Shown here: positions 9,391 through 43,045 of the stretch, in pieces | Layout of the letters: the number at the start of each line of letters is the position of its first letter | How positions within the stretch are numbered: position 1 is the first letter of the stretch | Assembly: GCA_965116335.1 (NCBI GenBank) | Contig: OZ220677.1 | Coordinates: 922,846 to 986,845 of the forward strand | From: Arenicellales bacterium | GTDB lineage: Bacteria > Pseudomonadota > Gammaproteobacteria > Arenicellales > Poriferihabitantaceae | DNA length: 64,000 nt | Direction of reading: 5' to 3' | Translations under genes and position numbers: made by a program | The notes under the pieces: generated by a model | What the model was told of the DNA's origin: nothing | The model's input: the letters and a program-made list of their open reading frames with translations, nothing else | The model's database searches: none

Positions 9391-9670
9391 TAGACCAAAC
9401 ATCCATTTGTTGCCACAGGGCGCCCGTATCATATCCAGAGTAGTCATGTATCTGGACAACAACCCCAAGATTAGCGTTTTCACCAACCTTACCCGCCATA
9501 TTCAGAGCTTCGGCAATACCAGCAGGGGTTTTATCAATCGGAGCGGTGACTATCCACAATGGCGATTCCCTGTTACCCAATGCAATATGACGATTATTAA
9601 AATGCTCATCAAGCAGTCCTTCTACCCGCTCCTTGTACGCATCCTGTGGAGACACCAGAAACAGTTTCAT
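9383..9670 (-). CDS. hypothetical protein (95 aa)
   Basis: Intact ORF, translationally coupled to the next gene, in an AT-rich island. No motif I recognise. Confidence 0.45.
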   Translation of the reverse strand: MKLFLVSPQDAYKERVEGLLDEHFNNRHIALGNRESPLWIVTAPIDKTPAGIAEALNMAGKVGENANLGVVVQIHDYSGYDTGALWQQMDVWSNE

Positions 9671-9825
9671 TTAATAAACCCGTAATTTTTTTGGAACATG
9701 AATGGATAATCCTTAATCTTTGTTGCTCAATCCAATCATACAAACCAGCCGGAGTAAAAGCAATGACAAATAGAGTCTCCAATTCCACGACAGAGGAGTT
9801 ATGGGGGGATGAGAACGGTTGGTTA

Positions 9826-12800
9826 TTACATATTTCTACGGTATTGGCCGCCGACTTCGTAGAGGGCCTGAGATATTTCTCCCAGTGAGCAGGTGCGTAC
9901 TGCCTGCATCAGTTGTTCGAAGATGTTGCGGTTGTCGATGGCGGCTTGCCGGACCGCTTGCAGGGCGGTCTGTGAGGTGTCGCGGTGAGTCGCCTTGAAT
10001 TGTCGTAGCCGTTTTATCTGGCTGCGTTTCTCCTGTTCGGTGGAGCGGGACAGTCCGATGGAAGTGGTCTGTGGTTGCGGGTCGGGATTGATGAAGGTAT
10101 TGACTCCGATGACGGGTAGCGTGCCTTCGTGCTTACGGTGCTCGTAGTGCATGGATTGCTCCTGGATGCAGCTTCTCTGGTAGCCGGTTTCCATCGCGCC
10201 GAGTACGCCGCCGCGCTCGGAAATTCTCTCGAACTCGCTCAATACGGCTTCTTCCAGCAGGTCGGTCAACTCCTCTATGATGAAACTGCCCTGGTTGGAG
10301 TTCTCATTCATCGCCAGCCCCCATTCGCGGTTGATGATCAACTGGATCGCCAGCGCGCGGCGCACCGATTCGTCGGTCGGGGTGGTAATCGCTTCATCGT
10401 AGGCGTTGGTATGCAGGCTGTTGCAGTTATCGTAAATGGCGATTAGCGCCTGCAGGGTGGTGCGGATGTCGTTGAAATCAATCTCCTGGGCATGCAGGGA
10501 GCGCCCCGAAGTCTGGATATGGTATTTCAATTTCTGCGAACGTTCATTGGCGCCGTAACGCTCTCGCATCGCGACCGCCCATATCCGCCGGGCGACCCGT
10601 CCCATGACAGTGTATTCCGGGCACATTCCATTGCTGAAAAAGAACGAGAGATTGGGCGCGAAATCATCAATGTCCATGCCCCGCGCCAGCCAGGCCTCGA
10701 CGTAGGTGAAGCCATTGGCCAGGGTGAACGCCAGTTGGCTGATCGGGTTGGCGCCGGCTTCCGCGATATGATAACCGGAGATCGAGACCGAGTAGAAATT
10801 GCGGATCCGATGTTGGGTGAAGTACTGCTGTACGTCGCCCATCAGCCGCAGGGAAAATTCGGTCGAGAAGATGCAGGTATTCTGCCCCTGATCTTCCTTC
10901 AGGATGTCAGCCTGTACGGTGCCGCGGACACTGGCCAGCGCGTCGGCGCGAACCTGTGCCGCCTCCCGCCCGTCCGGGGGCATGCCTTCGCGCTCGGTGA
11001 ACGCCTGCTGGCGTTGGTCGATGGCGACATTCAGGAACATCGCCAGGATGATCGGTGCGGGGCCGTTGATGGTCATGGAAACCGATGTCGCCGGGTCGCA
11101 CAGATCGAAGCCATCATATAGTACTCTCATGTCTTCCAGCGTGGCGATGGACACTCCGGAATTACCAACCTTGCCGTAAATATCCGGACGTTCATCCGGG
11201 TCGCAACCGTACAGAGTCACGGAATCGAAGGCAGTGGATAGTCTTTTGGCGCGGGAATGTTCCGACAGGTCGTGGAAGCGGCGATTGGTATTGAAGGCAT
11301 CCCCTCCCCCGGCGAACATCCGGGTCGGGTCTTCACCGTCTCGCTTGAACGGGAAAACTCCGGCAGTAAACGGGAACCGGCCCGGCAGATTATCGAGCAG
11401 CATCCAACGGGCCAGCTCGCCGTGATCGGCGAATTTCGGCAGGGCCACTCTGGGGATGTCCGTACCCGACAGGGTTTTCCTTTTCAACGGATTGTGGATT
11501 TGGCGGTCGCGGATGGTGACCACATATTCATCCCGGGAGAAATCTGTTACGTCCTGCGACCATTGTTGCAGCGCGGCTTGCAGTTGCGGGTCAAGCCGGG
11601 CCTTGCGCTCTTCAATCAGTCGGTCAAGGGTCGTGGTTTGCGCCGTATCTGTTGAACCCTCCACCTCACCAGCCTCCACCTGCAACATGGATCGAGTGGA
11701 TTCCAGTTGTTGAATCTCGCGCGCGGTGGTGGCCTGCGCGGTAGCCCGTTGCCGGTAGCCGCGCACCGTATCGGCAATCTCGGCGAGATAACGTTGTCGG
11801 CTCTCGGGGATAATCCGGTTGTGGTCGGTCGAGATGCGGATATTGACCGCGGGCAGTCGGCTGTGTTCGCATTGCAGGCCGTGCGCCTTGAGCTGGGCGA
11901 GGACCTCCTGATAGAGTGCGGTCACGCCATCATCGTTGAAGCGCGAGGCGATGGCTCCGAATACCGGCATGTCCTCGGGACGGGCACTGAACGCTTCGCG
12001 GTTGCGCTGCACCTGTCGGGCGACATCGCGCCAGGCATCCTCGGCACCCCTGCGGTCAAACTTGTTGATCGCCACAATATCAGCGAAGTCCAGCATATCT
12101 ATTTTTTCCAGCTGGGACTGCGCCCCGAACTCCGGGGTCATTACATACAATGCACAATCCACCAGGGCTGAAATGCCGGTATCGCCCTGCCCGATGCCCG
12201 GTGTCTCGACGATCACCAGATCGAATCCGGCATCCTGACACCGATCAATCATCGCACCGATGCAGTCGGGAACTTCTCTGGTACTGTCGCGGGTGGCGAT
12301 GGAACGCATAAAAATGTTGGGGTGATTCACTGCATTCATGCGGATACGGTCGCCGAGCAGGGCACCGCCGCTCTTACGCCGGGTCGGGTCGACCGCCAGG
12401 ATGGCGATTTTCAGCGAGTCCGCCAGATCCATACGGAATCTTAAAATCAGCTCATCGGTCAACGAGGACTTGCCAGCACCGCCGGTGCCGGTAATACCGA
12501 GAACCGGCGCCTTGCGGCCTGATTGCGCTGCACTTCTGGTCGCGCCCGGTACACGGTTGCGGTTGCCTGCGCCTGTGCCATCCTGGATTGCCGACAGGGT
12601 GCGAGACAATGCGGTGATGGTGGCGTTGTTGGCCAGGGCTTGTGGAGTCTGTGAGGCGACCGGTTCAGGCAGGCTCTGTCTGAGGTGGGCGGTAGTGGTC
12701 TCGATGATGTCGTCGATGATGCCGCCGAGTCCCATCTGTTGGCCGTCTTCGGGCGTATAGATACGAGTCACGCCGGAGGCTTCGAGCAGGGCTTTCTCCT

Positions 12801-13152
12801 CAGGGATGATGACGCCGCCGCCACCGGCGAATACCCGGATTCTGTCAGCGCCATTTTGACCTAACAAGTCAATCATGTATTGCAGGTACTCGATATGCCC
12901 GCCCTGATAGGAACTGATGGCGATGCCGTGCGCGTCTTCCTGCAATGCAGCGTTGACCACTTCAGCCACCGATCGGTTGTGCCCCAGGTGAATGACCTCA
13001 ACCCCCTTCGACTGGAGAATACGGCGCATGATATTGATGGCTGCATCATGACCATCGAACAGGCTGGCAGCAGTCACAAACCGCAAGGGGCTTGCTGGTT
13101 GCATATCTGCCTGTACAAGACTGGCGGTAGCCAGACGCTCCGCTTTACCCAA
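9826..13152 (-). CDS. icmF: fused isobutyryl-CoA mutase (B12-binding domain, MeaB-like GTPase, mutase domain)
   Basis: N-terminal FDGHDAAIN (DxHxxG B12 motif), GITGTGGAGKSSL P-loop, large C-terminal methylmalonyl-CoA-mutase-like domain. 1108 aa. Confidence 0.9.
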   Translation of the reverse strand: MGKAERLATASLVQADMQPASPLRFVTAASLFDGHDAAINIMRRILQSKGVEVIHLGHNRSVAEVVNAALQEDAHGIAISSYQGGHIEYLQYMIDLLGQNGADRIRVFAGGGGVIIPEEKALLEASGVTRIYTPEDGQQMGLGGIIDDIIETTTAHLRQSLPEPVASQTPQALANNATITALSRTLSAIQDGTGAGNRNRVPGATRSAAQSGRKAPVLGITGTGGAGKSSLTDELILRFRMDLADSLKIAILAVDPTRRKSGGALLGDRIRMNAVNHPNIFMRSIATRDSTREVPDCIGAMIDRCQDAGFDLVIVETPGIGQGDTGISALVDCALYVMTPEFGAQSQLEKIDMLDFADIVAINKFDRRGAEDAWRDVARQVQRNREAFSARPEDMPVFGAIASRFNDDGVTALYQEVLAQLKAHGLQCEHSRLPAVNIRISTDHNRIIPESRQRYLAEIADTVRGYRQRATAQATTAREIQQLESTRSMLQVEAGEVEGSTDTAQTTTLDRLIEERKARLDPQLQAALQQWSQDVTDFSRDEYVVTIRDRQIHNPLKRKTLSGTDIPRVALPKFADHGELARWMLLDNLPGRFPFTAGVFPFKRDGEDPTRMFAGGGDAFNTNRRFHDLSEHSRAKRLSTAFDSVTLYGCDPDERPDIYGKVGNSGVSIATLEDMRVLYDGFDLCDPATSVSMTINGPAPIILAMFLNVAIDQRQQAFTEREGMPPDGREAAQVRADALASVRGTVQADILKEDQGQNTCIFSTEFSLRLMGDVQQYFTQHRIRNFYSVSISGYHIAEAGANPISQLAFTLANGFTYVEAWLARGMDIDDFAPNLSFFFSNGMCPEYTVMGRVARRIWAVAMRERYGANERSQKLKYHIQTSGRSLHAQEIDFNDIRTTLQALIAIYDNCNSLHTNAYDEAITTPTDESVRRALAIQLIINREWGLAMNENSNQGSFIIEELTDLLEEAVLSEFERISERGGVLGAMETGYQRSCIQEQSMHYEHRKHEGTLPVIGVNTFINPDPQPQTTSIGLSRSTEQEKRSQIKRLRQFKATHRDTSQTALQAVRQAAIDNRNIFEQLMQAVRTCSLGEISQALYEVGGQYRRNM

Positions 13153-13312: not shown

Positions 13313-14278
13313 ATGGATATATCAGGAACACAGGTCAATTTACTGGTTGACCCTTGTTTGTCTGACGACCAAAAAGCAAGAAAAACGCATTGGGTTATCG
13401 CCCGGGACTGCCGTGACTACATGGGCTCCATGGGAGATAGCAGCGTATCCTTGATTGTAACCGACCCCCCATACTTTATTGATGGTATGGGAGACGATTG
13501 GAACCACGAAGCTCTTGGACGCCGGATGAGGCCGGGCGGCGTGGTTGGGTCTTTGCCTGTCGGGATGAAATTCGATGTGCATCAGGGCACGAAACTGCAA
13601 GGATTCCTGAAACCGATTGCACAGGAGTGGATGAGACTGATCAAGCCCGGAGGGTTTGTTCTGTGCTTTTCCCAGAACCGGCTGGTTCATCACACAGCTA
13701 TGGCAATCGAGTCAGCCGGTTTCGAGATTCGGGACGTTCTTGCATGGCGATACGAAGGCCAGGCAAAGGCATTCACCCAGGAACATTTTGTCCGCAAGCG
13801 AAACATCCCGGAATCTGAAAAGAAAAGGCTGATTAAAAAACTGGGAGGCAGGAAAACCCCACAATTAAAACCGCAGTGTGAACTAATTGTGATGGGGCAG
13901 GCACCACGTGACGGGACATTTGTAGATAACTGGGATAAGTGGGAAACAGGCCTGATTGACCCGAAACAACCATTGATCGAACCGGGCCGATTCCCCGGCA
14001 CGGTGATACCCGTACCAAAACCCCGCGAGAGGCACGGACATATAACGGCGAAACCGGTTGATCTTCTTCGTCACCTGATTCGTGTTTTCTCACCGGAAAG
14101 CGCATTGGTTTTTGATCCATTTGCGGGGTCAGGCTCAACCGGAGTCGCCGCTCGCATGGAGAACAGAGACTTTGTTGGCACTGAGATAGATCAAGCAATG
14201 GCGAAGAGAGCAGAAAAACGTATCGAGATGATTATGCCTTTGATAGCAAGGGACGAGTTCACGCAGTGGCGAGCGTGA
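13313..14278 (+). CDS. orphan DNA methyltransferase (beta-class N6A/N4C, PF01555-like)
   Basis: LIVTDPPYFIDG (motif IV) then VFDPFAGSGSTGVAA (motif I). No adjacent nuclease; flanked by icmF and an acyl-CoA dehydrogenase. Confidence 0.85.
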   Translation: MDISGTQVNLLVDPCLSDDQKARKTHWVIARDCRDYMGSMGDSSVSLIVTDPPYFIDGMGDDWNHEALGRRMRPGGVVGSLPVGMKFDVHQGTKLQGFLKPIAQEWMRLIKPGGFVLCFSQNRLVHHTAMAIESAGFEIRDVLAWRYEGQAKAFTQEHFVRKRNIPESEKKRLIKKLGGRKTPQLKPQCELIVMGQAPRDGTFVDNWDKWETGLIDPKQPLIEPGRFPGTVIPVPKPRERHGHITAKPVDLLRHLIRVFSPESALVFDPFAGSGSTGVAARMENRDFVGTEIDQAMAKRAEKRIEMIMPLIARDEFTQWRA

Positions 14279-21769: not shown

Positions 21770-22048
21770 ATGATTAAAAACTTTAAACACAAAGGTCTGA
21801 AGAAGTTTTTTGAAAGTGGCAGTAATGCAGGCATTCAGGCGTCGCACGGTACCAAAATTCGGGATCGACTTACTTTTCTGCATACGGCTGTCTGCATTGA
21901 AGATATGAACCTCCCCGGTTATCGATTGCATGAATTGAAGGGGAAGCTGGCTGGTCACTGGGCAATCGATATCAGTGGTAACTGGAGAATATCATTCAAG
22001 TTTGAACGAGGTGACGCTTACGACGTCAATTACGAGGACTATCACTGA
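21770..22048 (+). CDS. higB: HigB-type toxin (RelE/ParE superfamily, plasmid maintenance system killer family)
   Basis: MIKNFKHKGLKKFFESGS...GNWRISFKFERGDAYDVNYEDYH, 92 aa. The 220-aa track ORF is an artefactual N-terminal extension antisense to cimA. Confidence 0.85.
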   Translation: MIKNFKHKGLKKFFESGSNAGIQASHGTKIRDRLTFLHTAVCIEDMNLPGYRLHELKGKLAGHWAIDISGNWRISFKFERGDAYDVNYEDYH

Positions 22049-22392
22049 TGACTATTCAACAATTCAACCCTCCGCATCCGGGTGGCTTGATCAAGCGGAC
22101 CTACATTGAGCCATTTCCAGATGTTACTGCGGCAGGTATTGCGCGCGAACTCGGTGTTTCCAAAAGTACTTTTAGTCGTTTACTCTCCGGGAAGTCTGAC
22201 ATTTCTCCAGAGATGGCGGTGAGGCTGTCGACGGTATTAGGTCGATCTGCTGAAAGCTGGCTGGCGCTGCAAGACAATCATGATTTGTGGAAAACCCGGC
22301 AGTCAGTGAATACCGATGGGCTGCAAAGGATTCAGTTCAAACAACCGGAAAGAGCAAGGCCGCGCCACGAGGAGGAGTCCGCCAGCGTGTGA
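22048..22392 (+). CDS. higA: HigA-type antitoxin (XRE-family HTH)
   Basis: HPGGLIKRTYIEPF...TAAGIARELGVSKSTFSRLLSGKSDISPEMAVRLS. TGATG overlap with higB. Confidence 0.85.
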   Translation: MTIQQFNPPHPGGLIKRTYIEPFPDVTAAGIARELGVSKSTFSRLLSGKSDISPEMAVRLSTVLGRSAESWLALQDNHDLWKTRQSVNTDGLQRIQFKQPERARPRHEEESASV

Positions 22393-22399
22393 AATGAAG

Positions 22400-25300
22400 T
22401 CAGTCCGTGTTGTCAACTTCGAGCACGATCCTGAGGTCTTCAATATGGGTGTCAAAAAAGTAAACGTTGACCGGCTGGTCGGCGAGTGTCAGTTCCAATT
22501 CACTGCCATTCAGGGTCAGGAACCTGTCCTTCAACTCGTCCTTCGAACCGTTGGCATGCCTGAACATCGCCGCATGATTCGGGCATAGAATGAGGTAGTT
22601 CTGGTAGTGGTGTCTCTCCAGATCCGGGAGAAACTCAACGGCCTCGAAAAAGTAGCTTCCATCAGCCAACCTGAAGGGGAGGCGACCCTTGCACACCTGA
22701 CAGATGGTCACGCCGGCGTTGGTATACATATCCCGCAGATAGGGATTGGTCTTTTCTCTTTTGATCGGGTCGCGATTGACAGACACGGACCGCTCACGCT
22801 TCTCGCTCGTGCGTTCAGGCGCTTCCCCGGCTTCCTTCCGAACCTTCTCCGCTCTTCGGTCACGGTTTCCGGGTGCACGGGTGGGGAGGTCGACAGGTTC
22901 TGCGTTCTCCGCAAGGATTCTCTGTCGGGTCTCTGGAGACAGCGCGGCAAATTGTCTTCCGTGGTCGAGCGCAGCCTCGTCTGGAAAGCCGAGTTCGGCG
23001 GCGATCTCCTGCTTTCTGCGGTGCTGTTCGATACGGTTTTTGGTTTCGGTGCCGAAGCGGATGGCGGTGAGCCAGGCCCATCCGGGATCGAACGGGAATC
23101 CATCCGGCAGGAGGTCTCTCGAAGCTTCAGCGGGGCGAACGAATACATCGTCCCCCTGAGGAACCCAAGCAGTGTTCCGCAACTGGTGAGCGAGCTGAGA
23201 ATCGGCGGAACGAGGGGCGTTCGACTGGTTGTATTGAAATATGGCCTTCCAGATGCTCTCGTCTTGTTGATTCCAGACAAGACGGGAAAGAGTCTCCTGT
23301 CGTTGCGCTGATAGTAACGGGTTGGAAAAGGTATTCCAGACAAGACGGGAAAGAGCTATGGTCGGTATTTCGAACAAAGATTCGAACCCGGGAATTACGA
23401 AGTCACGGTTTATTCCAGTATGCGTGAAGGAAGCTCCCGGAGCACCATGCAAGTACTCTTTTGCTGGATTGTTGGCGCAGGTGATAACCGCAATAATTTT
23501 GAGGCAGTCGGCTACACCGCACATTCGGGCGAATTGGATAAGTTTCTCCCGCAGGTCGAAGGTCTGGTAGCTGTCGGACAAGGCCGCGCGGTCCGATTCG
23601 GAGCCGAGGGATCGGTAGTAGACTTCCAATCCGGTTTCGAGATAAGGGGAGTCGAGGTACAGGTCGTTGGGCTTGGACCAGAGTCTGTCGGCTCGCTGCA
23701 ATATGAAATAGTCCTTGAAGAGGGAGCTTACGTTCCTGTCCTTCCTGTCCTTTTCGAAGAGCGCAATGAAACGTCTCAGGTCGGATTCATGGGTCTCCCA
23801 TGGCGGGACGTTGGCGGGGTCGGCGTATCGTGTTTTGAGAATGGACTCAACCTGCTCGAACTCACCAATCTCCCGGACGCCGATGCCCCCCAGGAAACTC
23901 CTGGCACCAGTCTGTTCCGACTTGGTTCCACCGCCCGTGTAAGTGTCTTCCGCAACGCGGGGATGAATGGGATCTTCACGAATCTCCGGGGTCGGGAAAT
24001 AGCATTCGCCTCCTGTCCTGTATTCGCCGTCCGAAAGTCTGACGATACAGATTTCATCGAACTGATCGATGTCGTCGCTTCCCAGTTCCCGATAAAAGAG
24101 GGCATACAATGCCCGGTGCCACTCTGCCGGTTTCCGGCGTATCCAGTCAAGAAACGGCTCATCGGGACCCTGCTCCTCCCCGAAACAGCCCCGGGGTTTA
24201 TTGGAGAACCGCTTGTCCAGTGCTTCCACGAACTGTTCGACTCCCCAAGGCTTGATGTCGAGGCCATTCAGGAATCGGTCAACCTCAGTGCTTCGTCGTG
24301 TCGCGGCTACCGCCCAGTCGCGCGGGACATCGTCGCTATCAATCAGAAAACGGATATCCTCGTGATCCAGCAAGACCTTCAGTCCGGCCTCCGCCTGCAG
24401 CAATTGATTGGCTGGAGCATGGCCGCCGGTGTGTGTCGGCGTAAGAGGTCGCTCGTTCATTTCGTCAACAATGGCGTCACGTATCGGCGTATACGGAGGT
24501 GGGATTGTGTCCTCGCTATTCGGCAGCACAGCCAGAAACTCCCGGTCAAGCAGGCCGAGGTCGCGGATTGATGACAGCGATTCGGCTGCAAGTCTGGCGA
24601 GTTGTGCGAAGAGTGGTGCGTTTGCTGGCGTGTCCTTGATACTGGAGCGGCTGAGTTCCGGGACGAAGGGCGCATGGAGATGGAATCGCAGGTTTGAAGT
24701 CTCCTTTGCGGCCGTGAAGTAGACCGCAACATGTCCGCGTTCGGCCGGAACAATCCGAAACTGCCTGGAGAGGGGCGAGTGCGTGTCCAACTGAACGTCC
24801 CCGGACAGCTGTTTGAGTTCGAAGGCGATGGCAATGTGCTGACATTCCATCTCATCAACCGGTTCGGTGAAGCGAAGGAAGTGGGAACTTTCGGTCGGCC
24901 TGCCGTCGATCTCCCGAAGAATCTCAATGTGGTGATCCGAATGCAGATTCTGGAGCAGGAGTCCTTCCTGGCCACCGTCTATCCACCACTGGATCTCTTT
25001 AATATTGGACAGGAACAACAGGGTGTTGTCAGAAATATCCTCCAGCCCGTCCCGCACTTCCAAGAGAGCCTGAGCTTGTGGCTTCCTCCCGGAGTCGAAC
25101 GGAAACTCGAACCGCGTGTGACCGTTCAGGGCCGGGTTCGGTGGGATTTCCGACGGGAGTACCATTTCGGAAATCTTGAAGGCGAAGCTCGGCGACCAGA
25201 TGCGAGGTGAAGCCGTGTAGAGGAAGGCCGCCTTGAAGCCGATTCCGAAGCGACCGATTGTATCACTATCATCTTTTGTGCTGAATCCTATACCTGTAAT

Positions 25301-25543
25301 GGCTCTAACGTCTTTATAGTCGAACGGTCTCCCGTTATGTTCAAACGTCAAGCAAGTGTTAAAGAGACGAAAGTTTACTTCCGTTGCTTCTGCATCTTCA
25401 GCATTTTGTAGTAGTTCGTAAATGAAATGTGCTTTATCCGGATAAAAGTCATCGAATAAATCCAAGTTGATGTCGCCTTCATTGACCGCAAGGCCATCCA
25501 AGAATTTTTTTCGTTTTTCTCTTAGGGTCTCAAAAAAATTCAC
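22400..25543 (-). CDS. sacsin/MORC-like GHKL ATPase with C-terminal HNH-like (CxxC...HH..N..CPNH) nuclease module, 1047 aa
   Basis: N-terminal ELLQNAEDA (25391..25417), EHNGRPF, GRFGIGFKAAF form a Bergerat fold. C-terminal CQVCKGRLPF...ERHHYQNYLILCPNHAAMF (22574..22702). GTG start overlaps the stop of the upstream SNF2 gene (GTGA). Confidence 0.75.
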   Translation of the reverse strand: MNFFETLREKRKKFLDGLAVNEGDINLDLFDDFYPDKAHFIYELLQNAEDAEATEVNFRLFNTCLTFEHNGRPFDYKDVRAITGIGFSTKDDSDTIGRFGIGFKAAFLYTASPRIWSPSFAFKISEMVLPSEIPPNPALNGHTRFEFPFDSGRKPQAQALLEVRDGLEDISDNTLLFLSNIKEIQWWIDGGQEGLLLQNLHSDHHIEILREIDGRPTESSHFLRFTEPVDEMECQHIAIAFELKQLSGDVQLDTHSPLSRQFRIVPAERGHVAVYFTAAKETSNLRFHLHAPFVPELSRSSIKDTPANAPLFAQLARLAAESLSSIRDLGLLDREFLAVLPNSEDTIPPPYTPIRDAIVDEMNERPLTPTHTGGHAPANQLLQAEAGLKVLLDHEDIRFLIDSDDVPRDWAVAATRRSTEVDRFLNGLDIKPWGVEQFVEALDKRFSNKPRGCFGEEQGPDEPFLDWIRRKPAEWHRALYALFYRELGSDDIDQFDEICIVRLSDGEYRTGGECYFPTPEIREDPIHPRVAEDTYTGGGTKSEQTGARSFLGGIGVREIGEFEQVESILKTRYADPANVPPWETHESDLRRFIALFEKDRKDRNVSSLFKDYFILQRADRLWSKPNDLYLDSPYLETGLEVYYRSLGSESDRAALSDSYQTFDLREKLIQFARMCGVADCLKIIAVITCANNPAKEYLHGAPGASFTHTGINRDFVIPGFESLFEIPTIALSRLVWNTFSNPLLSAQRQETLSRLVWNQQDESIWKAIFQYNQSNAPRSADSQLAHQLRNTAWVPQGDDVFVRPAEASRDLLPDGFPFDPGWAWLTAIRFGTETKNRIEQHRRKQEIAAELGFPDEAALDHGRQFAALSPETRQRILAENAEPVDLPTRAPGNRDRRAEKVRKEAGEAPERTSEKRERSVSVNRDPIKREKTNPYLRDMYTNAGVTICQVCKGRLPFRLADGSYFFEAVEFLPDLERHHYQNYLILCPNHAAMFRHANGSKDELKDRFLTLNGSELELTLADQPVNVYFFDTHIEDLRIVLEVDNTD
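22422..22442. repeat. left copy of a perfect 21-nt direct repeat AGCACGATCCTGAGGTCTTCA
   Basis: Identical 21-mer at 29749..29769, checked base by base. This copy lies within the last ~14 codons of the GHKL-HNH gene. Confidence 0.9.
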
Positions 25544-28500
25544 TGAACTGAATCCGTTGTAATTTTCAAAGTTCCTTGAACAACTAGGGTAGCGTGGATG
25601 TCGGCACTTTCCGCCAGCCTTTCCAACTCGGCAATCCGGCTCTCATAGTCATAGTTCGCACGCGCCAATTCGCTTTCCTTCATCCGACGAATCTTGTCGT
25701 TTGTCGCGGCTCCGACCTGGCCCTCCAACAACTTGCATCGGGCCCCGTGGCTGGTTCTCAAGCTTTGCCGCCGGTGGTGAACGAGTTCCCGGTTCTCCGC
25801 CACATGATTTGCGCGTGCTGCACGCCATTTGCCGTGGTGCCGCTTATCAAGGCGTTCAATCGCGACTTCGTCAAGCAATGTGCCGTCGGGCGTGTCCACT
25901 GCAACTTCCAACAGGGACATCACCGCGCTGTCCAATTCGGGGTTCTCGGTGACGGACACCAGCGTGTCATCGGATCGAATACCGACATTGCGCCACTGGT
26001 AGAGGGCGAACGGATATTCACCCGGTGGGACAGTTTCGCTTGATGCGATCAGACTGACCTGCACCGCTTGGGAGCGTTTCAGGTGCCGCGCCGCCTGCCT
26101 GAGCAGTGGATGCAGAACGTTGAGATAGACGGCCTTCGGCTCGGCGGCAGCGGCTTCCTGGTCGAAGGTGACCGGCAGCAACGGGTCCGCGCCTCTGAGC
26201 CACTTTTCCCATTGCCGGGCGACCGGATCGGTGGATCGCGGCTGGCCCCGGAAGTCAGCGAGTAGCCTGGCCCGGATATTCTGGCCGAGGCGCAGAGTCT
26301 TAAGAGGTTTGTCGCCGAGCAGAAAATCGCCGTCAGTCTCCGACACGCCCGACAGATAAATGGTAACGCATCGTTGCAGTGCCTCGGCGGACAACCAGAA
26401 GCTCTCAGCCTCCGCGATCTCCTTGCGCCACGACTGGTTTGGAACCGTCAGGCCGAACAGTTCGGCTTGCTTTTCCTCTAACGCTGTCTCTTCCTGAACC
26501 TGGCGGATCTTGTTGTCACCTAGTTGCTGCAGGCGCTCGGCACGCTGTTCCGCCGTCAGCATGAAGCTGTCGGCAATATTGTGAATCTCCCGGGTGATCT
26601 CGCCGAGAATTTCTTCGCTACCGCCGACCGCGTGATGGAATACACCGATGCGCATCAGACAGCGTTCGTAGATGTCCGCGTCGACCGTGCCGGGCGTCAC
26701 CAGGTTGACGATGGCGACGCTCTCGCTCTGCTGGCCGTAGCGATCGATACGCCCGATACGTTGTTCGATACGCATGGGGTTCCACGGCAGATCGTAGTTA
26801 ATTAACAGGTCACAGAACTGGAAGTCAAGCCCTTCGCCGCCGACCTCCGAGGAAAGCAAAACATCCAGCGCCTCCGGGTCGTCCTTCGGCGAAGCGAATC
26901 GGCGGCGCAACTCGGCACGCTGGTCGTCCGGAACGCCGCCGTGCACGAGACCGTAGCGCAAGCCCGCATCCGCGACGTGTTTCTCGATATAGGCGAGTGT
27001 GTGCCGAAAAGTGCTGAAGGCAAGCGCCTTGTTGTTGTCCATCCGACCCTTGTCCCGCAGTACGCTGATGAATACCTGCACCTTGGGGTCGAAGGAATCG
27101 AGATCGTCGGCATGCTCCAGGAGCATCTCGACATCGGTTCGTATCTCGGCAAGAAAATCAGCATCGATGGGAGTCTCGCCATCGGTCCCGTCTGTCGTTT
27201 CAAGACTGTCGAGCTTTCCGACAAGCATATCGCGCAATAGTGGCGCCAGTCCGTAAAGGCAGCTCGCCGCCTGACGACGGATCGTGGTCATCATGAACTT
27301 GACGTTCTGCTCGCCATGGGCACGCGCCAGAATGCGGCTTACCACATTGAGGAGGTCATCATGCAGTCGGCGCTGGTCGGGCGTGAACTCGACCGTCAGC
27401 GTTTCTGGCCGACGGGTCGTGAACTCCCCGATATCCCGGCGGCGAGTCCGGTTAATCATCGGACTGAAGGTATAGAGTTCCTCCAGAGACCGGATGATGC
27501 GAATACGGCTGGCGTCGTCGATATGCTCCTCCGCCAGACGATCATAGATGTCCTGAAACGCTGGCGATTCTCGCAGGAAAAGGAGACCCCACTCGGTCTG
27601 TGCGGCTTGCCCCAAGCATTTGCGGGCTTCGGCCTGCCAGCGATCTCCTTCCGCACGGCAATGGCCCACGGCTGCGTTAATGAACCCGTTGGGCGCAGCC
27701 ATCTGCTCGAAGCTCGGGCGGTCGATGACGAGGTCCGGCCGCAGTACGTTCAGCAAGGTAAAGAGGTCTTGACTGCCAAGTTGCACCGGGGTGGCGGTGA
27801 GAAAGACGGCGGCCTGGGCGTTGTCGCAGAAATAGCGCACCGCTTGGTGAAGGTAGGTATCCGGGTTGCGAATATGGTGCGCCTCGTCGACGATCACGAG
27901 ATCAAATCTGGGCGGCGGGTCAAGTGCGAGCAGTCCCTGGCTAGCTCGCGCCCCCCTTACCTTCTTGCCAAAAAGCAGATCCGAATCAAACAGGGAGAAC
28001 GGTAGTATAGCCTTGGCATAGCGGTCGGGCCATTCACCCTCCAAGTCCATTTCCCGCAGACAGTGGCGTAGCATTCGACCGTCGAGAGTCTCGAAATGCT
28101 CGTCAAAACGCTTCATCTCCACGAACCACTTGCGCTCGGTAACCAGCGCCTTGGGGCAGATGATCAGCACCGAGGAAATGTCCGTCCGTGCCCGCAACTC
28201 TTTGATGATCAGCCCAGCCTCAATCGTCTTGCCCACGCCCACCTCGTCGGCAATCAGCAGACGAGGTCGGTCGGCCCGGATCAATCTCAAAACGGGGCGA
28301 TACTGATAAGGCACGAAGTGAATGCGCCCGGACCGCAGCGAATACAGGTTAGCGGTGGACGGCGAGAGCAGATGCAGGCTGGTCAGATGGGCGCGTACTT
28401 CGCCAGCACTGAGTAGAGAAGGTTCGTCTGAGGACTCAAGGGGCCGCAGCTGGCTCTCGTAGTAGGTCGCCTGACGATTGTCCTGGAAAACCTGGTAGCG

Positions 28501-29160
28501 TGCCTCGGCGGCACTGTCCATGACTCCAATGATCGGCACCACAATGCCGGGGTCGGAACGCAACGCCACGAGGTTACCGACCTTGAATATCGTCGTTGCT
28601 GCCTGTGAAGAGACAGCAGAAATTTCGCGGTCGCTCGGTGCCGTAATCGAATCAGCGGTATTGTCAGGATGGAGCGAGGAAGTCTGGGGGGCGTCGGACG
28701 GCACCGTCATGTCGGAAAGAGCATCTCTCTTAAACGCTTCGACCGTCGCGACGGAGGCAGGCGTGGCGCCAAGCATATCCAGAACACGAGCAAGTGTGTC
28801 GACATCCCGGTAAAGGTCTTCAGCCCGGACTGGCGACACCGACAGGTGCGCCCATTGATTGCGAACGGCTTGCAGCTCCCTGACCAAAGTGCGTCCCTCG
28901 CGCGGCAGATTGAGCACCTGCGAGAGTTCGTACCAATTCTGGTCCAGGATTCGCAACAGGGCAGCAAAATCTAACTGTTCCAGCTTGGTGAGCCCACGTT
29001 CCTCCACGGTACGCTGCTGTTGGAAGCTCAGACGGTTCGCGACATACGTTTTCCACCAGCCCTCGCCAAGAGTGGACAGGTGAGTCGCAAGAAAAGCGGC
29101 AAGCTCGACAGTTGCGATGCGAATCAGTTCATGCATGAAGTGAAGAGCCGTTGACAACAC
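25540..29160 (-). CDS. SNF2-family helicase with N-terminal HEPN (Swt1-like, RNQWAH) domain, 1206 aa
   Basis: RNQWAH at aa 100-105 (28846..28863). DEVGVGKT (motif I), VIVDEAHHIRN (II), LLSSEVGGEGLDFQ (V), QRIGRIDRYGQ (VI). ~300-aa C-terminal extension. GTG start at 29160; alternative ATG at 29136. Confidence 0.8.
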   Translation of the reverse strand: MLSTALHFMHELIRIATVELAAFLATHLSTLGEGWWKTYVANRLSFQQQRTVEERGLTKLEQLDFAALLRILDQNWYELSQVLNLPREGRTLVRELQAVRNQWAHLSVSPVRAEDLYRDVDTLARVLDMLGATPASVATVEAFKRDALSDMTVPSDAPQTSSLHPDNTADSITAPSDREISAVSSQAATTIFKVGNLVALRSDPGIVVPIIGVMDSAAEARYQVFQDNRQATYYESQLRPLESSDEPSLLSAGEVRAHLTSLHLLSPSTANLYSLRSGRIHFVPYQYRPVLRLIRADRPRLLIADEVGVGKTIEAGLIIKELRARTDISSVLIICPKALVTERKWFVEMKRFDEHFETLDGRMLRHCLREMDLEGEWPDRYAKAILPFSLFDSDLLFGKKVRGARASQGLLALDPPPRFDLVIVDEAHHIRNPDTYLHQAVRYFCDNAQAAVFLTATPVQLGSQDLFTLLNVLRPDLVIDRPSFEQMAAPNGFINAAVGHCRAEGDRWQAEARKCLGQAAQTEWGLLFLRESPAFQDIYDRLAEEHIDDASRIRIIRSLEELYTFSPMINRTRRRDIGEFTTRRPETLTVEFTPDQRRLHDDLLNVVSRILARAHGEQNVKFMMTTIRRQAASCLYGLAPLLRDMLVGKLDSLETTDGTDGETPIDADFLAEIRTDVEMLLEHADDLDSFDPKVQVFISVLRDKGRMDNNKALAFSTFRHTLAYIEKHVADAGLRYGLVHGGVPDDQRAELRRRFASPKDDPEALDVLLSSEVGGEGLDFQFCDLLINYDLPWNPMRIEQRIGRIDRYGQQSESVAIVNLVTPGTVDADIYERCLMRIGVFHHAVGGSEEILGEITREIHNIADSFMLTAEQRAERLQQLGDNKIRQVQEETALEEKQAELFGLTVPNQSWRKEIAEAESFWLSAEALQRCVTIYLSGVSETDGDFLLGDKPLKTLRLGQNIRARLLADFRGQPRSTDPVARQWEKWLRGADPLLPVTFDQEAAAAEPKAVYLNVLHPLLRQAARHLKRSQAVQVSLIASSETVPPGEYPFALYQWRNVGIRSDDTLVSVTENPELDSAVMSLLEVAVDTPDGTLLDEVAIERLDKRHHGKWRAARANHVAENRELVHHRRQSLRTSHGARCKLLEGQVGAATNDKIRRMKESELARANYDYESRIAELERLAESADIHATLVVQGTLKITTDSVQ

Positions 29161-29364: not shown

Positions 29365-29373
29365 GAATCCGGG

Positions 29374-29402
29374 TTGACCCGGCGGCGCAATCCAGCCAGA
29401 AT
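29374..29402 (+). promoter_or_regulatory. sigma70-like promoter TTGACC-N17-CAGAAT of the small TM/coiled-coil gene
   Basis: The same TTGACCCGGCGGCGCAA..CAGAATAG block is repeated upstream of the paralog at 40725..40753 (minus). Confidence 0.6.
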
Positions 29403-29406
29403 AGGG

Positions 29407-29437
29407 ACACCAGAAAAGAACAGACAGGCAACGAACC
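29407..29437 (+). promoter_or_regulatory. conserved A-rich 5' leader ACACCAGAAAAGAACAGACAGGCAACGAACC (copy 1 of 3)
   Basis: Near-identical sequence abuts the ATG of three genes (29438, 40689, 40318). No canonical GGAGG. Confidence 0.6.
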
Positions 29438-29734
29438 ATGACACCAGAACTATACGCAATTATCGGAGTAGGCCTGGCATTGGCCGGAGTACTTATCCCG
29501 GCCAGCAATCGCCAGAGCCGGGATATTGCCGGACTACGGGAACAAATGAACCAGGACATTACCGGACTACGGCAAGAGATCAACCAGGACATTTCCGGAC
29601 TACGGCAGGAAATCAGCCAGCAGGGGCAACAAATCAACCAGGTTGCCCGGCAGGTGGGGCACTTGTCCGGCTTGCTGGAAGGCTTGCGAGGCCGTCCAAT
29701 CGTGACAGAGCAACCGGAAGAAATCCGGGCTTAA
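29438..29734 (+). CDS. small N-terminal-TM coiled-coil protein with 11-residue repeats (98 aa), unknown function
   Basis: LYAIIGVGLALAGVLIP TM, then DI(A/T/S)GLR(E/Q)xxNQ x3, then C-terminal VGHLSGLLEGLRGRPIVTEQPEEIRA shared with the paralog at 40375..40689. Confidence 0.65.
   Translation: MTPELYAIIGVGLALAGVLIPASNRQSRDIAGLREQMNQDITGLRQEINQDISGLRQEISQQGQQINQVARQVGHLSGLLEGLRGRPIVTEQPEEIRA
29522..29620 (+). repeat. in-frame tandem repeat, 3 x 33 nt (GAYATTNCCGGACTACGGSARGARATSARCCAG)
   Basis: Read directly. Encodes DIxGLRxxxNQ hendecads. Confidence 0.85.
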
Positions 29735-40021: not shown

Positions 40022-40318
40022 TCAGCCGCCCGCCGCCAAACTGGATACATCGCGCCAGATAGCGAACAAAAAGCCCAACATAACCAGCGTAAAAGCAAAA
40101 TGTAATCCGAACATCCAGCGCAATCCGGCAATATCGCCCTTTAATGATTTCTCCAGGCCAGCCATTTCCCGCCGTAATCCGGTAATATCACCCTTTGTCG
40201 CCAGCTCGCCGGACTGGTTCGCCATAACCTCGGCCACTGCTTCGGCCTGCTCGGTCTTGAATCCGGCCTTTTCCAGTTTCCGCATTGCGGCCAGTGTGTC
40301 TATCGCTACGGTTGTCAT
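40022..40318 (-). CDS. DUF1640-family coiled-coil protein with C-terminal TM helix (98 aa)
   Basis: MTTVAIDTLAAMRKLEKAGFKTEQAEAVAEVM is the typical DUF1640 N-terminus. GDITGLRREMAGLEKSLKGDIAGLR, then TM FGLHFAFTLVMLGFLFAIW. Internal ATG 40318 follows the conserved leader. Confidence 0.7.
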   Translation of the reverse strand: MTTVAIDTLAAMRKLEKAGFKTEQAEAVAEVMANQSGELATKGDITGLRREMAGLEKSLKGDIAGLRWMFGLHFAFTLVMLGFLFAIWRDVSSLAAGG

Positions 40319-40349
40319 GATTCGTTGCCTGTCTGTTCTTTTTTGGTGT
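40319..40349 (-). promoter_or_regulatory. conserved A-rich 5' leader (copy 3): ACACCAAAAAAGAACAGACAGGCAACGAATC
   Basis: Differs from copy 1 at ~3 positions. Abuts the DUF1640 ATG. Confidence 0.6.
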
Positions 40350-40374
40350 TCCCGGTCTTGCCTGCCTCGGCTTA

Positions 40375-40689
40375 TCACGCCTGTATTGCTTCCGGTTGCT
40401 CTGTCACCATTGGCCGCCCTCGCAAGCCTTCCAGCAAGCCGGACAAGTGTCCCACCTCGCGGGAAACTTGGTTAATCTCTTGCCGTAGTCCGGCAATATC
40501 CTGATTCATTTCTTGCCGTAGTCCGTTAATCTCTTGCCGTAGTCCGTTAATCTCTTGCCGTAGTCCGGCAATATCCTGATTGACTTGTCCGGCCAGCCGA
40601 TTATTGGCCGGTATGATTACCCCGGCCAATGCTACGCCCACGCCGACAATGGTAATAATCAGCAAGATTAACGCGGTTGTAATAGTCAT
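40375..40689 (-). CDS. small N-terminal-TM coiled-coil protein, paralog of 29438..29734 (104 aa)
   Basis: TM ALILLIITIVGVGVALAGVIIP. DIAGLRQEINGLRQEINGLRQEMNQDIAGLRQEIN. C-terminal VGHLSGLLEGLRGRPMVTEQPEAIQA. Confidence 0.65.
   Translation of the reverse strand: MTITTALILLIITIVGVGVALAGVIIPANNRLAGQVNQDIAGLRQEINGLRQEINGLRQEMNQDIAGLRQEINQVSREVGHLSGLLEGLRGRPMVTEQPEAIQA
40472..40584 (-). repeat. in-frame mosaic of 21-nt (GLRQEIN) and 33-nt (GLRQEMNQDIA) tandem units
   Basis: TTAATCTCTTGCCGTAGTCCG occurs 3 times (40472, 40526, 40547), interleaved with a 33-nt variant. Confidence 0.85.
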
Positions 40690-40721
40690 GGTTTGATGCC
40701 TGCCTGTTCTTTTCTTGGTGT
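40690..40721 (-). promoter_or_regulatory. conserved A-rich 5' leader (copy 2): ACACCAAGAAAAGAACAGGCAGGCATCAAACC
   Basis: Aligned by eye with copies 1 and 3. Confidence 0.55.
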
Positions 40722-40724
40722 TCT

Positions 40725-40753
40725 ATTCTGGCCGAGTTGCGCCGCCGGGTCAA
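40725..40753 (-). promoter_or_regulatory. sigma70-like promoter TTGACC-N17-CAGAAT (paralogous to 29374..29402)
   Basis: Minus strand reads GGGTTGACCCGGCGGCGCAACTCGGCCAGAATAGAA. Confidence 0.6.
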
Positions 40754-40761
40754 CCCGGAGA

Positions 40762-42177
40762 GTTGTCCAATGGAAGATGAGCCTGAAGGATGATCTGTAT
40801 TTCCATCGGGAGATGAGCCTTTCGGCGTTGATTTTGGGATCATCGGAGGATGATCGTGAAATTACACAGCCAGCGTTTACAGACGGTGGAGGAGATTCGT
40901 TCCTTTCTGGACGGAGCCACCACTTTTGATTTTGAACCCCAATCCCGCAAACAAACCTACCGATGGCTCTGTGACAGCTTGCGGCAGGTACGGTATTCCT
41001 TGCTCAACAAGACCGACCGGGGGATCGTCAAGACCTATCTGGAAAAGGTCAGTGGCTTGTCCCGCGCACAGGTCACCCGGTTGATCCGACAGTATCGCGA
41101 CAGTGGATGTATCCAGGATCGTCGGGGAAGACCCGCTAACGCTTTCTCCCAGCGCTATACGTCAGCAGATGTCGCTTTGTTGGTTCAAACCGATACCCTG
41201 CACGGCAACCTGTCCGGACCCGCTACCCGAAAACTGTGCGAACGCGCCTTTCTGGTATTCGGCGATACCCGATACGCGCGACTGGCTACAATCTCCAACG
41301 GCCACCTCTATAACCTGCGACACTCGGATGCCTACCAGCGCAAACGACGACACTTCCAGAAAACCCGACCTACTCCAGCAAAAATCGGAGTCAGACGAAT
41401 ACCCAGACCCAATGGCCGACCCGGCTTCTTGCGCGTCGATACCGTACATCAGGGCGACCAGGACGGCATCAAGGGGTTGTATCACATCAATGCCGTCGAT
41501 GAAGTCACCCAGATGCAGGCCATAGTCAGTGTGCAGAGAATCTCTGAAAGCTATCTCATCCCGGCCCTGCATGAATTACTCCAAGCCTTCCCCTTCACTC
41601 TCCTGGGATTCCATTCCGATAACGGTTCAGAGTATATCAATCACACAGTCGCCAAACTATTGCAAAAACTCCATATCGAACAAACCAAATCACGACCCAG
41701 ACAGAGTAATGACAATGCCCTGGTCGAAGGCAAAAATGGTTCCGTCATCCGTAAGCATCTGGGATACGAACACATCTCACAGCACTTCGCTCAACCCGTC
41801 AATGACTTCCTGGTTCATGTACTCACTCCCTACCTCAACTACCACAGACCCTGCCTGTTCGCAAAGGAAGAAATCAACCAAAAAGGAAAACGAATCCGTA
41901 AATACCCGCACTCACTCATTCAGACTCCTTACGAAAAACTCCGATCCTTACCCAATGCACAACAATATCTCAAACCAGGAGTAACCTTCAAAAAACTGGA
42001 TGACTTCGCTCACCAATACAGCGATAATGAAGCCGCAAAAAGACTCAACGAAGCACGCAATACACTATTCCAATCTTTTAACAATTCCCAAAATTACGCC
42101 GCCTGAAAAACTCTCTCAATGTCTAGAAATATAATCACAATAGACAACACGCTCAGGCTCATCTCTGGATTGGAAAA
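40762..42177 (+). mobile_element. insertion sequence (~1.4 kb) with imperfect ~26-bp terminal inverted repeats
   Basis: Left end GTTGTCCAATGGAAGATGAGCCTGA vs reverse complement of the right end GTTTTCCAATCCAGAGATGAGCCTGA. Core AGATGAGCCTGA at 40775..40786 and 42152..42163. Single rve transposase inside. Exact ends approximate. Confidence 0.7.
40850..42106 (+). CDS. DDE transposase / integrase catalytic core (rve domain)
   Basis: 418 aa. DTVHQGD...FHSDNGSEYIN...NALVEGKNG are the spaced D, D, E residues. N-terminal HTH-like region. Confidence 0.8.
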   Translation: MIVKLHSQRLQTVEEIRSFLDGATTFDFEPQSRKQTYRWLCDSLRQVRYSLLNKTDRGIVKTYLEKVSGLSRAQVTRLIRQYRDSGCIQDRRGRPANAFSQRYTSADVALLVQTDTLHGNLSGPATRKLCERAFLVFGDTRYARLATISNGHLYNLRHSDAYQRKRRHFQKTRPTPAKIGVRRIPRPNGRPGFLRVDTVHQGDQDGIKGLYHINAVDEVTQMQAIVSVQRISESYLIPALHELLQAFPFTLLGFHSDNGSEYINHTVAKLLQKLHIEQTKSRPRQSNDNALVEGKNGSVIRKHLGYEHISQHFAQPVNDFLVHVLTPYLNYHRPCLFAKEEINQKGKRIRKYPHSLIQTPYEKLRSLPNAQQYLKPGVTFKKLDDFAHQYSDNEAAKRLNEARNTLFQSFNNSQNYAA

Positions 42178-42541: not shown

Positions 42542-43045
42542 TCACTCTATCAACTGCCCGTATCTATACCGTACTTCCTCAACCTTACCACCCGGCCATT
42601 TTATCACCCAATGCCCGTGTCTGTGGTCGTCTACATACGGGCCTTCCTGAACCATGTCGCCGATGACTTCCACCCAATGCCCGTTCCGCTTATCGTCTAC
42701 ATACTGGCCTTCCGCAACCGCGCCGGGGATGCCTTTCTCCACCCAATGCCCGTTCTTCTTGCCGTCTACATACGGGCCTTCATCAACCATAGTACCGTCT
42801 GGGGATTTCGATACTACGTATTTCTCCACCCAATGCCCGTTCCGCTTGTCGTCTACATACGGGCCTTCCTGAGCCCTATCGAAAAACAGATGTTTCTCCA
42901 CCCAATGCCCGTTCCGCTTGTTATCTACAATAGGGCCTTCCCCAACCCAACCGCCCGGCAATTCAATTACTTCCGCGCTTGCAGCCAGTGGCATGATCAG
43001 CAATGCCATAACCGCCAGTATTTTCAATTTCATTGTCTGCATCAT
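42542..43045 (-). CDS. secreted MORN-repeat-variant (MORN_2/YwqK-like repeats) protein, 167 aa
   Basis: Signal peptide MKLKILAVMALLIMPLAASA. Repeated EGPYVDDKRNGHWVEK units. C-terminal VEEVRYRYGQLIE. Confidence 0.75.
   Translation of the reverse strand: MMQTMKLKILAVMALLIMPLAASAEVIELPGGWVGEGPIVDNKRNGHWVEKHLFFDRAQEGPYVDDKRNGHWVEKYVVSKSPDGTMVDEGPYVDGKKNGHWVEKGIPGAVAEGQYVDDKRNGHWVEVIGDMVQEGPYVDDHRHGHWVIKWPGGKVEEVRYRYGQLIE

Follow-up and report, generated by a model that had tools for sequence, protein, structure and literature searches.

Several described systems resemble the locus reported here. In the Ava_2192-type systems, an HEPN domain is fused to a DUF499 AAA+ ATPase and encoded in restriction-modification-like operons that also contain genes for a DUF1156 methylase and for a helicase (Anantharaman et al., 2013, PMC3710099). 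The same survey counts PrrC and RloC among the HEPN proteins and gives the architecture of sacsin as sacsin-repeat, Hsp90-like ATPase modules joined to DnaJ and, at the C terminus, to HEPN. HEPN ribonucleases (RNases) generally work in a metal-independent manner through paired Rx4-6H motifs, as described there and, in part, as generally known. Operons of the MORC/paraMORC type combine a GHKL ATPase with a superfamily II helicase, usually with a nuclease and often with a methylase (Iyer et al., 2008, PMC2292703), and Tiamat is listed as a single-gene system with a PD-(D/E)XK domain (preprint 10.1101/2024.10.26.620412). Here we describe a gene pair in a stretch of 64,000 nucleotides from an Arenicellales bacterium (contig OZ220677.1, positions 922,846 to 986,845), which we call the window. 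One gene encodes an HEPN domain fused to an SNF2-type helicase, and the next a sacsin-like GHKL ATPase. We propose, with a probability of about one in two, that they form a two-gene module for defence against phages or mobile DNA, in which the HEPN domain is the RNase effector and the SNF2 and GHKL ATPases sense DNA.

The helicase gene lies on the minus strand, a point absent from the initial annotation of this DNA, which had been made from the sequence alone. Its open reading frame (ORF) has 1206 codons counted from a GTG at 29160. An alternative start, the ATG of codon 9 at base 29136 (MHELIR...), gives 1198 amino acids; homologues begin at MHELIR, and a 100%-identical database protein (P0001) is 1198 amino acids long. 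The true start is probably the ATG at 29136, for a protein of 1198 residues; we keep the numbering from the GTG. The plus strand at 28846-28863 reads gtgcgcccattgattgcg, and its reverse complement, CGC AAT CAA TGG GCG CAC, encodes RNQWAH at codons 100-105, where the initial annotation had placed it. Its residue numbers, R100 and H105, are correct for the 1206-codon frame and become R92 and H97 if counted from the ATG at codon 9.

From this motif the initial annotation had proposed an HEPN signature at the N terminus of the protein. The bare Rx4H motif is not above chance and is worthless as evidence taken alone; the protein holds 8 matches to it, with about 3 expected from composition, and about 1 match with a polar residue after the arginine is expected. 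The proposal is borne out by the family profile and by conservation. Pfam HEPN_Swt1 (PF18731) matches residues 20-129 (28774-29103) with E=7.9e-17 and 62 bits against a cut-off of 27.5, and the alignment spans profile positions 10-113 of 115. Across 149 aligned relatives, H105, D64 and R70 are invariant, and R100, N101, W103 and A104 are at least 90% conserved. The form RN[RK]WAH occurs in all but a few of 102 full-length homologues (63-100% identity). Furthermore, a HMMER search of 1.84 billion cluster representatives returned 821 at E<=1e-3, and RNxxxH is kept in 129 of the 141 newly retrieved distant representatives (38-67% identity), the others looking truncated. An orthologue on a human-gut scaffold, only 35% identical, still carries RNNWAH. 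Lack of conservation among orthologues had been named at the outset as a reason to abandon the HEPN assignment; down to 35% identity, the motif is conserved.

The region is all-helical in an AlphaFold2 model, as it had been described from the sequence, with a mean predicted local distance difference test score (pLDDT) of 92.6 and a predicted TM score (pTM) of 0.86. In the model, the motif straddles the C-terminal end of helix 81-96 (numbered as in the model) and the first part of the loop that follows. The HEPN survey locates the Rx4-6H site where helix-3 ends and the loop to helix-4 begins (PMC3710099), and since the predicted placement matches this description, we counted it in favor of an HEPN domain. 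A search of the PDB with the HEPN profile gave nothing but noise and, at E=0.95, the HEPN defence protein HepS; a search with the single HEPN sequence gave no match. The structure prediction agrees in part, with a predicted fold that is consistent with HEPN, and membership in the Swt1 family is established at the level of sequence. Bacterial Swt1-like HEPN domains are rated catalytically active, and HEPN domains that are inactive typically lose the Rx4-6H motif (PMC3710099). Because R, N and H are near-invariant in this family, conservation favors a catalytic RNase over a purely sensing HEPN domain.

The HEPN domain heads an SNF2-type helicase, as had been claimed. Pfam finds SNF2-rel_dom (PF00176, E=2e-18), Helicase_C (PF00271, E=2e-19) and ResIII (PF04851) in the core, and motifs I, II, III and VI are intact: DEVGVGKT at 305 (motif I, with K311), DEAHH at 425 (motif II, DEAH at 425-428), TATP at 455 and QRIGRIDR at 800 (motif VI). 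By these matches the core classifies as an SNF2 family ATPase. Among defence models, PADLOC DrmD (PDLC02623) aligns over residues 195-1077 with E=1.4e-108, and HmaA matches with E=2e-39. The closest solved relative of the core is RapA (E=1.5e-39, with a profile from the full-length alignment against the PDB). At the family level, NCBIfam DrmD (NF038317) reaches residue 1164 with 303 bits against a cut-off of 610, and NCBIfam RapA (NF003426; E=4e-54) covers residues 269-905 only, with 184 bits against a cut-off of 576. Judged by these scores, the helicase is related to both DrmD and RapA and is a member of neither. The C-terminal region is common to DrmD-like proteins, and the PADLOC DrmD model reaches into it as far as residue 1077; it contains no Pfam domain and, when scanned alone, gave no PADLOC match.

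Between the HEPN domain and the core lie a linker and a small barrel. In the linker, pLDDT falls to 28-33 and column conservation to 20-30%. The initial annotation had described residues 191-242 as an SH3/Tudor-like barrel that might read nucleic acids or their modifications. The barrel itself stands as a prediction: AlphaFold2 places five beta-strands at residues 197-240 with pLDDT of about 80-87, and the best Foldseek matches in the PDB are the 53BP1 Tudor domain, the UvrD C-terminal Tudor domain, the MRG15 chromodomain and the NusG KOW domain, with root-mean-square deviations of 2-3 Å over about 50 residues and E values of only 0.05-0.5. A profile of the barrel found no sequence-level match among PDB chains, RapA included. 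The nearest bacterial analogues of the predicted fold appear to be not modification readers but Tudor domains that bind RNA polymerase, such as that at the C terminus of UvrD. Since the PDLC02623 alignment begins at residue 195, which is at the barrel, we assign the barrel to the DrmD-like helicase chassis and not to the HEPN module.

The initial annotation did not mention the partner gene. Pfam SACS (PF25794) matches its product with E=4.5e-14 and 53 bits against a cut-off of 32.8, HATPase_c_3 (PF13589) with 26.9 bits against 25, and NCBIfam NF047352 with 91 bits against 50. The ATP-binding motifs ELLQNAEDA (E43, N47) and GRFGIGFKA are conserved in 41 orthologues, and from end to end the protein shares 48% identity with the product of the correspondingly placed gene of Sulfuricaulis limicola. 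By sequence family, then, the partner is a sacsin-like GHKL ATPase. The PADLOC TmtA model of Tiamat also matches it (E=2e-51), over residues 32-409 only and at model positions 70-455 of 1486; the match of the middle region to TmtA is weak (E=3e-5).

The last ~100 residues of the partner bear a conserved signature, CQxC ... YFEAVEFLP ... QNYLALCPNH. Pfam gave no match in this region, and there is a weak PADLOC mREase_IV match at the C terminus, but a profile built from 37 orthologues finds Escherichia coli McrA (6ghc_A) at its HNH domain, with E=3.9e-7. The zinc ligands (Cx2C, Cx2[HC]) are conserved and the Asn is kept; EVHHVIP of McrA aligns with EAVEFLP, and CPNCH with CPNHA. The HH of McrA (chain residues 238-239) is V-E here, and the His after the second Cys pair is Ala, in all 37 orthologues. 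In the usual definition of the H-N-H motif, the histidines are catalytic. Because they are replaced, we rejected an active HNH nuclease of this type and consider the domain more likely to be a catalytically degenerate, DNA-binding module. Judged by signatures, this leaves HEPN as the one domain in the pair whose nuclease motif is intact. Also invariant in the partner are a Glu and, downstream of it, a His/Asp pair (YFT.TH..DL).

The two genes travel together. A pattern scan based on the HEPN alignment, with one genome per species (185,579 species), gave 377 confirmed loci, and we retrieved 80 of them. They come from Alpha- and Gammaproteobacteria, Planctomycetota, Chloroflexota, Verrucomicrobiota, Binatia, Acidobacteriota, Actinomycetota, Armatimonadota and Ignavibacteriales, and from the archaea Methanoperedens, Methanoculleus and Methanocalculus. 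HEPN forms one protein with the barrel and SNF2 core in 70 of the 80. In 62 of these fused loci, the sequence available downstream reaches 1.5 kb or more; 58 of the 62 have a SACS-like gene directly downstream on the same strand, the four exceptions being interrupted copies, and the gap between the genes is usually 0-130 nucleotides (nt) by tblastn ends. They overlap by 4 nt in the window and in three loci found by exact protein look-up (L001-L003). Clustering of the ORFs of 84 loci revealed no third conserved gene besides the pair. A 108-amino-acid ORF overlapping the start of the Sulfuricaulis helicase was considered as a third gene and rejected, having no counterpart in the window and no Pfam match. 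The helicase and the sacsin-like gene are thus a widespread, translationally coupled two-gene module, and the copy in the window is one ordinary member of a large family.

We surveyed two ORFs on each side of the module loci, 147 in all; the counts are raw tallies. They include the PADLOC candidates PDC-S68 (8 ORFs) and PDC-S01 (3), HNH enzymes, restriction-modification types I and II, DarTG, ZacAB, integrases, recombinases and transposases. Among the commonest of these flanking families, no methylase recurs. At the Sulfuricaulis locus, the pair is followed by GmrSD and Schlafen/AlbA_2 genes. The PDC-S68 gene, a superfamily 1 helicase of ~1200 residues (AAA_30/UvrD_C_2), neighbours the pair in 8-12 loci, with no fixed side or strand, including L009 (16720-20415), L014, L034, L040, L043, L049, L052 and L066. 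The module is essentially absent from the plasmid collection, where we found three distant HEPN matches only, and its only occurrences in the phage collection are on three gut scaffolds, all unverified. One of these (L084, MT836112.1, "UNVERIFIED Bacteriophage sp.", human faeces) carries at 10133-12896 the distant HEPN-barrel-SNF2 orthologue with the RNNWAH motif noted above, 35% identical in the HEPN domain and 50% in SNF2, which runs off the scaffold end.

The HEPN domain is also found in other settings. Seven solo genes of 255-381 residues encode the same HEPN subfamily and a similar low-complexity linker, followed by differing C-terminal domains that have no Pfam match; their motif is RN[RK]WAH or a close variant, and their neighbours are housekeeping or insertion sequence genes. 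On a plasmid of Burkholderia sp. PAMC 26561 (L085, NZ_CP014311.1, 1521-12285), a SACS-domain ATPase of 1413 residues, a DUF1156 protein and an HEPN_Swt1-DUF499 protein are encoded in a row, and the HEPN domain of the window is 34% identical to that of the last (E=5e-7, tblastn). A Thermus plasmid carries a helicase/DUF1156/DUF499 version. For two helicase homologues, HEPN is encoded apart from the helicase, by another ORF of the contig (P0124 with P0070, P0125 with P0049). Since it occurs in solo and DUF499 contexts and is missing from some helicases, the HEPN domain with its linker behaves as a portable module joined to different NTPases and other domains.

Table 1. Coordinates of the helicase gene and its predicted parts, the partner gene, other window features and the solo HEPN relatives.
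Feature	Position	Strand	Basis or remark
Whole gene, HEPN-linker-Tudor-like barrel-SNF2 ATPase-C-terminal region	25540..29160	-	ORF list, translation
Swt1-family HEPN domain (aa 9-152), eight predicted helices	28705..29136	-	PF18731, AlphaFold2, conservation
RNQWAH, Rx4H signature (R100, N101, H105)	28846..28863	-	Direct reading, conservation, predicted-structure placement
Low-complexity, poorly conserved linker (aa ~153-190), ~40 aa	28591..28704	-	Predicted disordered
Small five-strand beta-barrel (aa ~191-242), Tudor/SH3-like by predicted fold	28435..28590	-	AlphaFold2, Foldseek
SNF2-type ATPase core (aa ~276-860)	26581..28335	-	Pfam, PADLOC DrmD, RapA similarity, motifs
Helicase C-terminal region (aa ~861-1206), ending in a coiled-coil-like tail	25543..26580	-	DrmD models
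Partner gene, sacsin-like GHKL (Bergerat-fold) ATPase, 1047 aa	22400..25543	-	Start overlaps helicase stop by 4 nt
McrA-type HNH/zinc-finger domain, partner C terminus (aa ~940-1000)	22544..22726	-	37-orthologue profile against 6ghc_A
HigB/HigA toxin-antitoxin pair	21773..22392	+	PF05015 HigB E=8e-20; HTH_3/HTH_31 for HigA
Stand-alone type II-like DNA methyltransferase	13313-14278	+	PADLOC MTase_II E=5e-37
Solo HEPN genes in other loci, match starts	L022 10001, L031 10001, L038 5345, L047 10001
Solo HEPN genes in other loci, match starts	L060 10001, L062 3031, L079 10001

How might such a pair work? The SNF2 motor, together with the dimerising GHKL ATPase, would bind DNA, move along it and detect a state that is foreign or abnormal. 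Driven by ATP, the complex would then assemble or dimerise and so bring two tethered HEPN domains together, and a composite R/H active site would form, like that of other HEPN RNases. The RNase would cut RNA (tRNA, rRNA or mRNA) in a metal-independent way and stop translation; the outcome would be abortive infection or growth arrest, with the cell or the invader halted. On binding ATP, GHKL ATPases form dimers. Those of the MORC/paraMORC type are predicted to act with superfamily II helicases on DNA (PMC2292703). This scheme, with its RNase activity, trigger, dimerisation step and defence phenotype, is what we infer from the data above, and it corresponds to the first of two alternatives in the initial annotation, RNA cleavage triggered by DNA tracking. 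The module shows several signs of a defence system: a patchy spread over phyla, defence and mobile genes as neighbours, and kinship with DrmD and TmtA. Taken together, the pair is probably an uncharacterised anti-phage defence system.

A few observations weigh against this reading. The window copy has Q102 where nearly all relatives carry R or K. Among the 120 closest helicase homologues listed, 18 are without PF18731; several of these are split or truncated calls, but one locus (L003) truly lacks the HEPN domain and yet keeps the partner. There, at 9612-10001, only the linker end of the N-terminal region is left (E=0.004), and the HEPN part looks deleted rather than never present. Because HEPN-less helicases exist and L003 retains its partner, the SNF2 and SACS core can persist without the RNase, even if some such copies look split or decayed.

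A bolder form of the same idea is possible, though we think it less likely than not. The pair would be a methylase-independent immune module of an undescribed kind, in which the SNF2 translocase and a sacsin-like GHKL clamp license the HEPN RNase. The dead McrA-type HNH domain would serve as the DNA reader, and ATP-driven dimerisation would convert DNA tracking into RNA destruction. By extension, the prokaryotic linkage of a sacsin-type ATPase with an HEPN domain, seen in this family and at the Burkholderia DUF499 locus, would be a functional antecedent of the sacsin-repeat modules and HEPN domain of animal sacsin.

The kinship with RapA could point to a different task, transcription-coupled RNA surveillance. 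The barrel would attach the protein to RNA polymerase, much like the Tudor-like domains of RapA, UvrD, Mfd and CarD; the SNF2 motor would work on stalled or foreign transcription complexes, and the HEPN domain would cut the nascent transcript or R-loop RNA, in defence or as a housekeeping activity. RapA is the closest solved relative of the core, and the barrel matches the C-terminal Tudor domain of UvrD on the RNA polymerase lobe (7egs_B, TMt 0.65; 6yi2) as well as the KOW domains of NusG and of Spt5. A long flexible linker would let the HEPN domain reach RNA near the motor, and eukaryotic Swt1 functions in transcript surveillance (PMC3710099). However, the score against the RapA family is far under its cut-off, the barrel matches neither RapA nor any other PDB chain in sequence, and its Foldseek E values are only 0.05-0.5. 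This explanation also leaves unaccounted for the obligatory sacsin-like GHKL partner with its HNH-type DNA-binding domain, and a housekeeping role is opposed by the patchy, island-like distribution. We regard surveillance as unlikely.

We give similarly little credence to a DNA-targeting, restriction-like system in which foreign DNA is cut by the HNH-like domain of the partner or by a nuclease that has escaped recognition, with HEPN as an accessory that serves for back-up or regulation. Operons of GHKL, SWI2/SNF2 and HNH proteins are predicted to be restriction-like (PMC2292703), the partner does bear a McrA-type HNH domain, and the HEPN-less copies keep that partner. The invariant E967 and the downstream invariant H126/D129 (alignment numbering) could even form an alternative active site. 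Still, both HNH histidines are replaced (V/E, A) in 37 of 37 orthologues, and the general-base position, E970 here, is not fixed. With no methylase linked in the window or recurring among the commonest flanking families, protection of self DNA would go unexplained, and the strong conservation of R, N and H in the HEPN domain is not expected of a dispensable accessory. Least probable is the second alternative of the initial annotation, a non-catalytic HEPN domain that senses nucleic acid or autoinhibits and gates the SNF2 ATPase: the HEPN domains of eukaryotic Swt1 are predicted to be inactive RNA binders (PMC3710099), and Q102 and the HEPN-less copies would fit, but inactive HEPN domains typically lose the very motif whose R, polar N and H are here near-invariant from 100% to 35% identity and in several kinds of fusion.

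In the window, the pair and the HigBA genes make up an ~8-kb insert between a citramalate/isopropylmalate-synthase-like gene and glpD; the helicase gene has as its neighbours the SACS-like gene, HigBA, and genes for metabolism and transport. HigBA is convergent with the partner gene and is probably a neighbour on the island rather than part of the module. HigA-like genes lie 30-40 nt upstream of the HEPN-SNF2 gene in five other loci (L011, L018, L021, L024 and L027), and HigA-type genes may be a recurrent travelling companion of the module. The part of the window that was scanned contains no methylase other than the MTase_II gene, which is separated from the module by 8 kb and by housekeeping genes; no restriction gene was noticed beside it. 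A promoter and terminator scan gave counts equal to the shuffled background. An inverted duplication (29368-29730 and 40313-40759, 84-87% complementary) brackets a 10.6-kb cluster of glpD, sugar ATP-binding cassette (ABC) transporter, DeoR and glycerol kinase genes. Each inverted copy holds a small transmembrane and coiled-coil ORF (29438-29734, plus strand) with 33-nt (11-residue) tandem repeats. A transposase-like ORF (40850-42106) lies just outside the duplication, and downstream of that ORF, at 42598-42953, are five direct repeats of ~62 nt, 68-82% identical to the reference copy and spaced 66-87 nt apart.

Part of what we describe was already on record. The HEPN fusion is annotated through a PF18731 match, precomputed for almost all full-length homologues, and some members bear the NCBI name "Swt1 family HEPN domain-containing protein". 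The components, too, are of known kinds: HEPN-NTPase fusions of conflict systems (PMC3710099), operons of GHKL, SNF2 and HNH proteins (PMC2292703), DrmD-like helicases and TmtA-like ATPases. The main text of the 2013 HEPN survey does not describe an HEPN-SNF2 fusion (PMC3710099), and our literature searches, which returned only that survey, found no paper on the HEPN-SNF2/sacsin-like pair. PADLOC v2 has no model for the pair or for an HEPN-helicase as such, newer defence catalogues lying outside this comparison; its best helicase matches start at residue 195, and the HEPN domain alone matches only PDC-M34B (E=0.0014). If the defence reading is wrong, what remains is a correctly spotted, already-annotated domain fusion. 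If it is right, this is a widespread two-gene immune system, with 377 loci among ~186,000 species genomes of bacteria and methanogenic archaea, in which a chromatin-remodeller-type motor and an Hsp90/MORC-type ATPase are coupled to an RNase effector without a methylase. It would be a new entry for defence catalogues and a tractable case of DNA sensing turned into RNA cleavage by a helicase, and it might inform the role of Swt1-type HEPN domains. It might also inform why sacsin, which is mutated in the ataxia ARSACS, joins Hsp90-like ATPase modules with an HEPN domain, and the antecedent idea would offer a testable model for the function of that domain. Of wider interest is that the repeated linkage of a sacsin-type ATPase with HEPN in prokaryotes mirrors the architecture of animal sacsin, though the HEPN families differ.

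Set against the known systems one by one, the pair resembles several. With DISARM DrmD and E. coli RapA it shares the SNF2 ATPase core, the DrmD model giving the strong match reported above and RapA being the closest structure. The DrmD models, however, are without HEPN, their alignment starting at residue 195. Membership in DISARM was rejected on the family score and on the absence of drmA, drmB, drmC or a methylase next to the pair, and membership in RapA on its score, its restricted span and the barrel profile, which finds no RapA. Tiamat was likewise rejected for the partner: only residues 32-409 align well with TmtA, so that ~400 N-terminal residues are alignable to models 1063-1782 long, and the C terminus is HNH-type and not TmtA-like.

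PrrC and RloC are likened to the helicase by their logic. They, too, carry an HEPN RNase on one polypeptide with an NTPase and turn a DNA or restriction event into RNA cleavage, the logic invoked in the initial annotation, and they are regulated by EcoprrI and by DNA damage. Unlike the window protein, they have an HEPN domain of another family, an ABC/Rad50-like ATPase and no GHKL partner. The Ava_2192-type proteins are of the same HEPN family; in them, PF18731 also heads a large NTPase and Rx4H is kept ("Active" in the table of PMC3710099). In the window, by contrast, the NTPase is an SNF2 helicase rather than DUF499, a linked methylase is missing, and next to the helicase stands a sacsin-like ATPase whose HNH domain is degenerate. 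The Burkholderia locus is of the Ava_2192 type and, unlike the window module, carries DUF499 and DUF1156.

The MORC/paraMORC operons agree with the pair in having a GHKL protein beside an SWI2/SNF2 helicase, an HNH-type domain and a sporadic distribution across phyla (PMC2292703). As judged from its domains, the pair shows the combination of GHKL and superfamily II helicase by which such conflict operons are recognised, with a nuclease-type domain that is degenerate; it differs from them in lacking a methylase and the catalytic histidines of HNH and in the addition of a predicted HEPN RNase. Finally, eukaryotic sacsin has the same sacsin-type ATPase (PF25794, NF047352) linked to HEPN, on one polypeptide there and in one operon here. 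Its HEPN domain is of the HEPN-T/PF05168 group rather than Swt1-like (PMC3710099), and sacsin is described as a chaperone and has no helicase, whereas the pair in the window couples its sacsin-like ATPase to an SNF2 motor.

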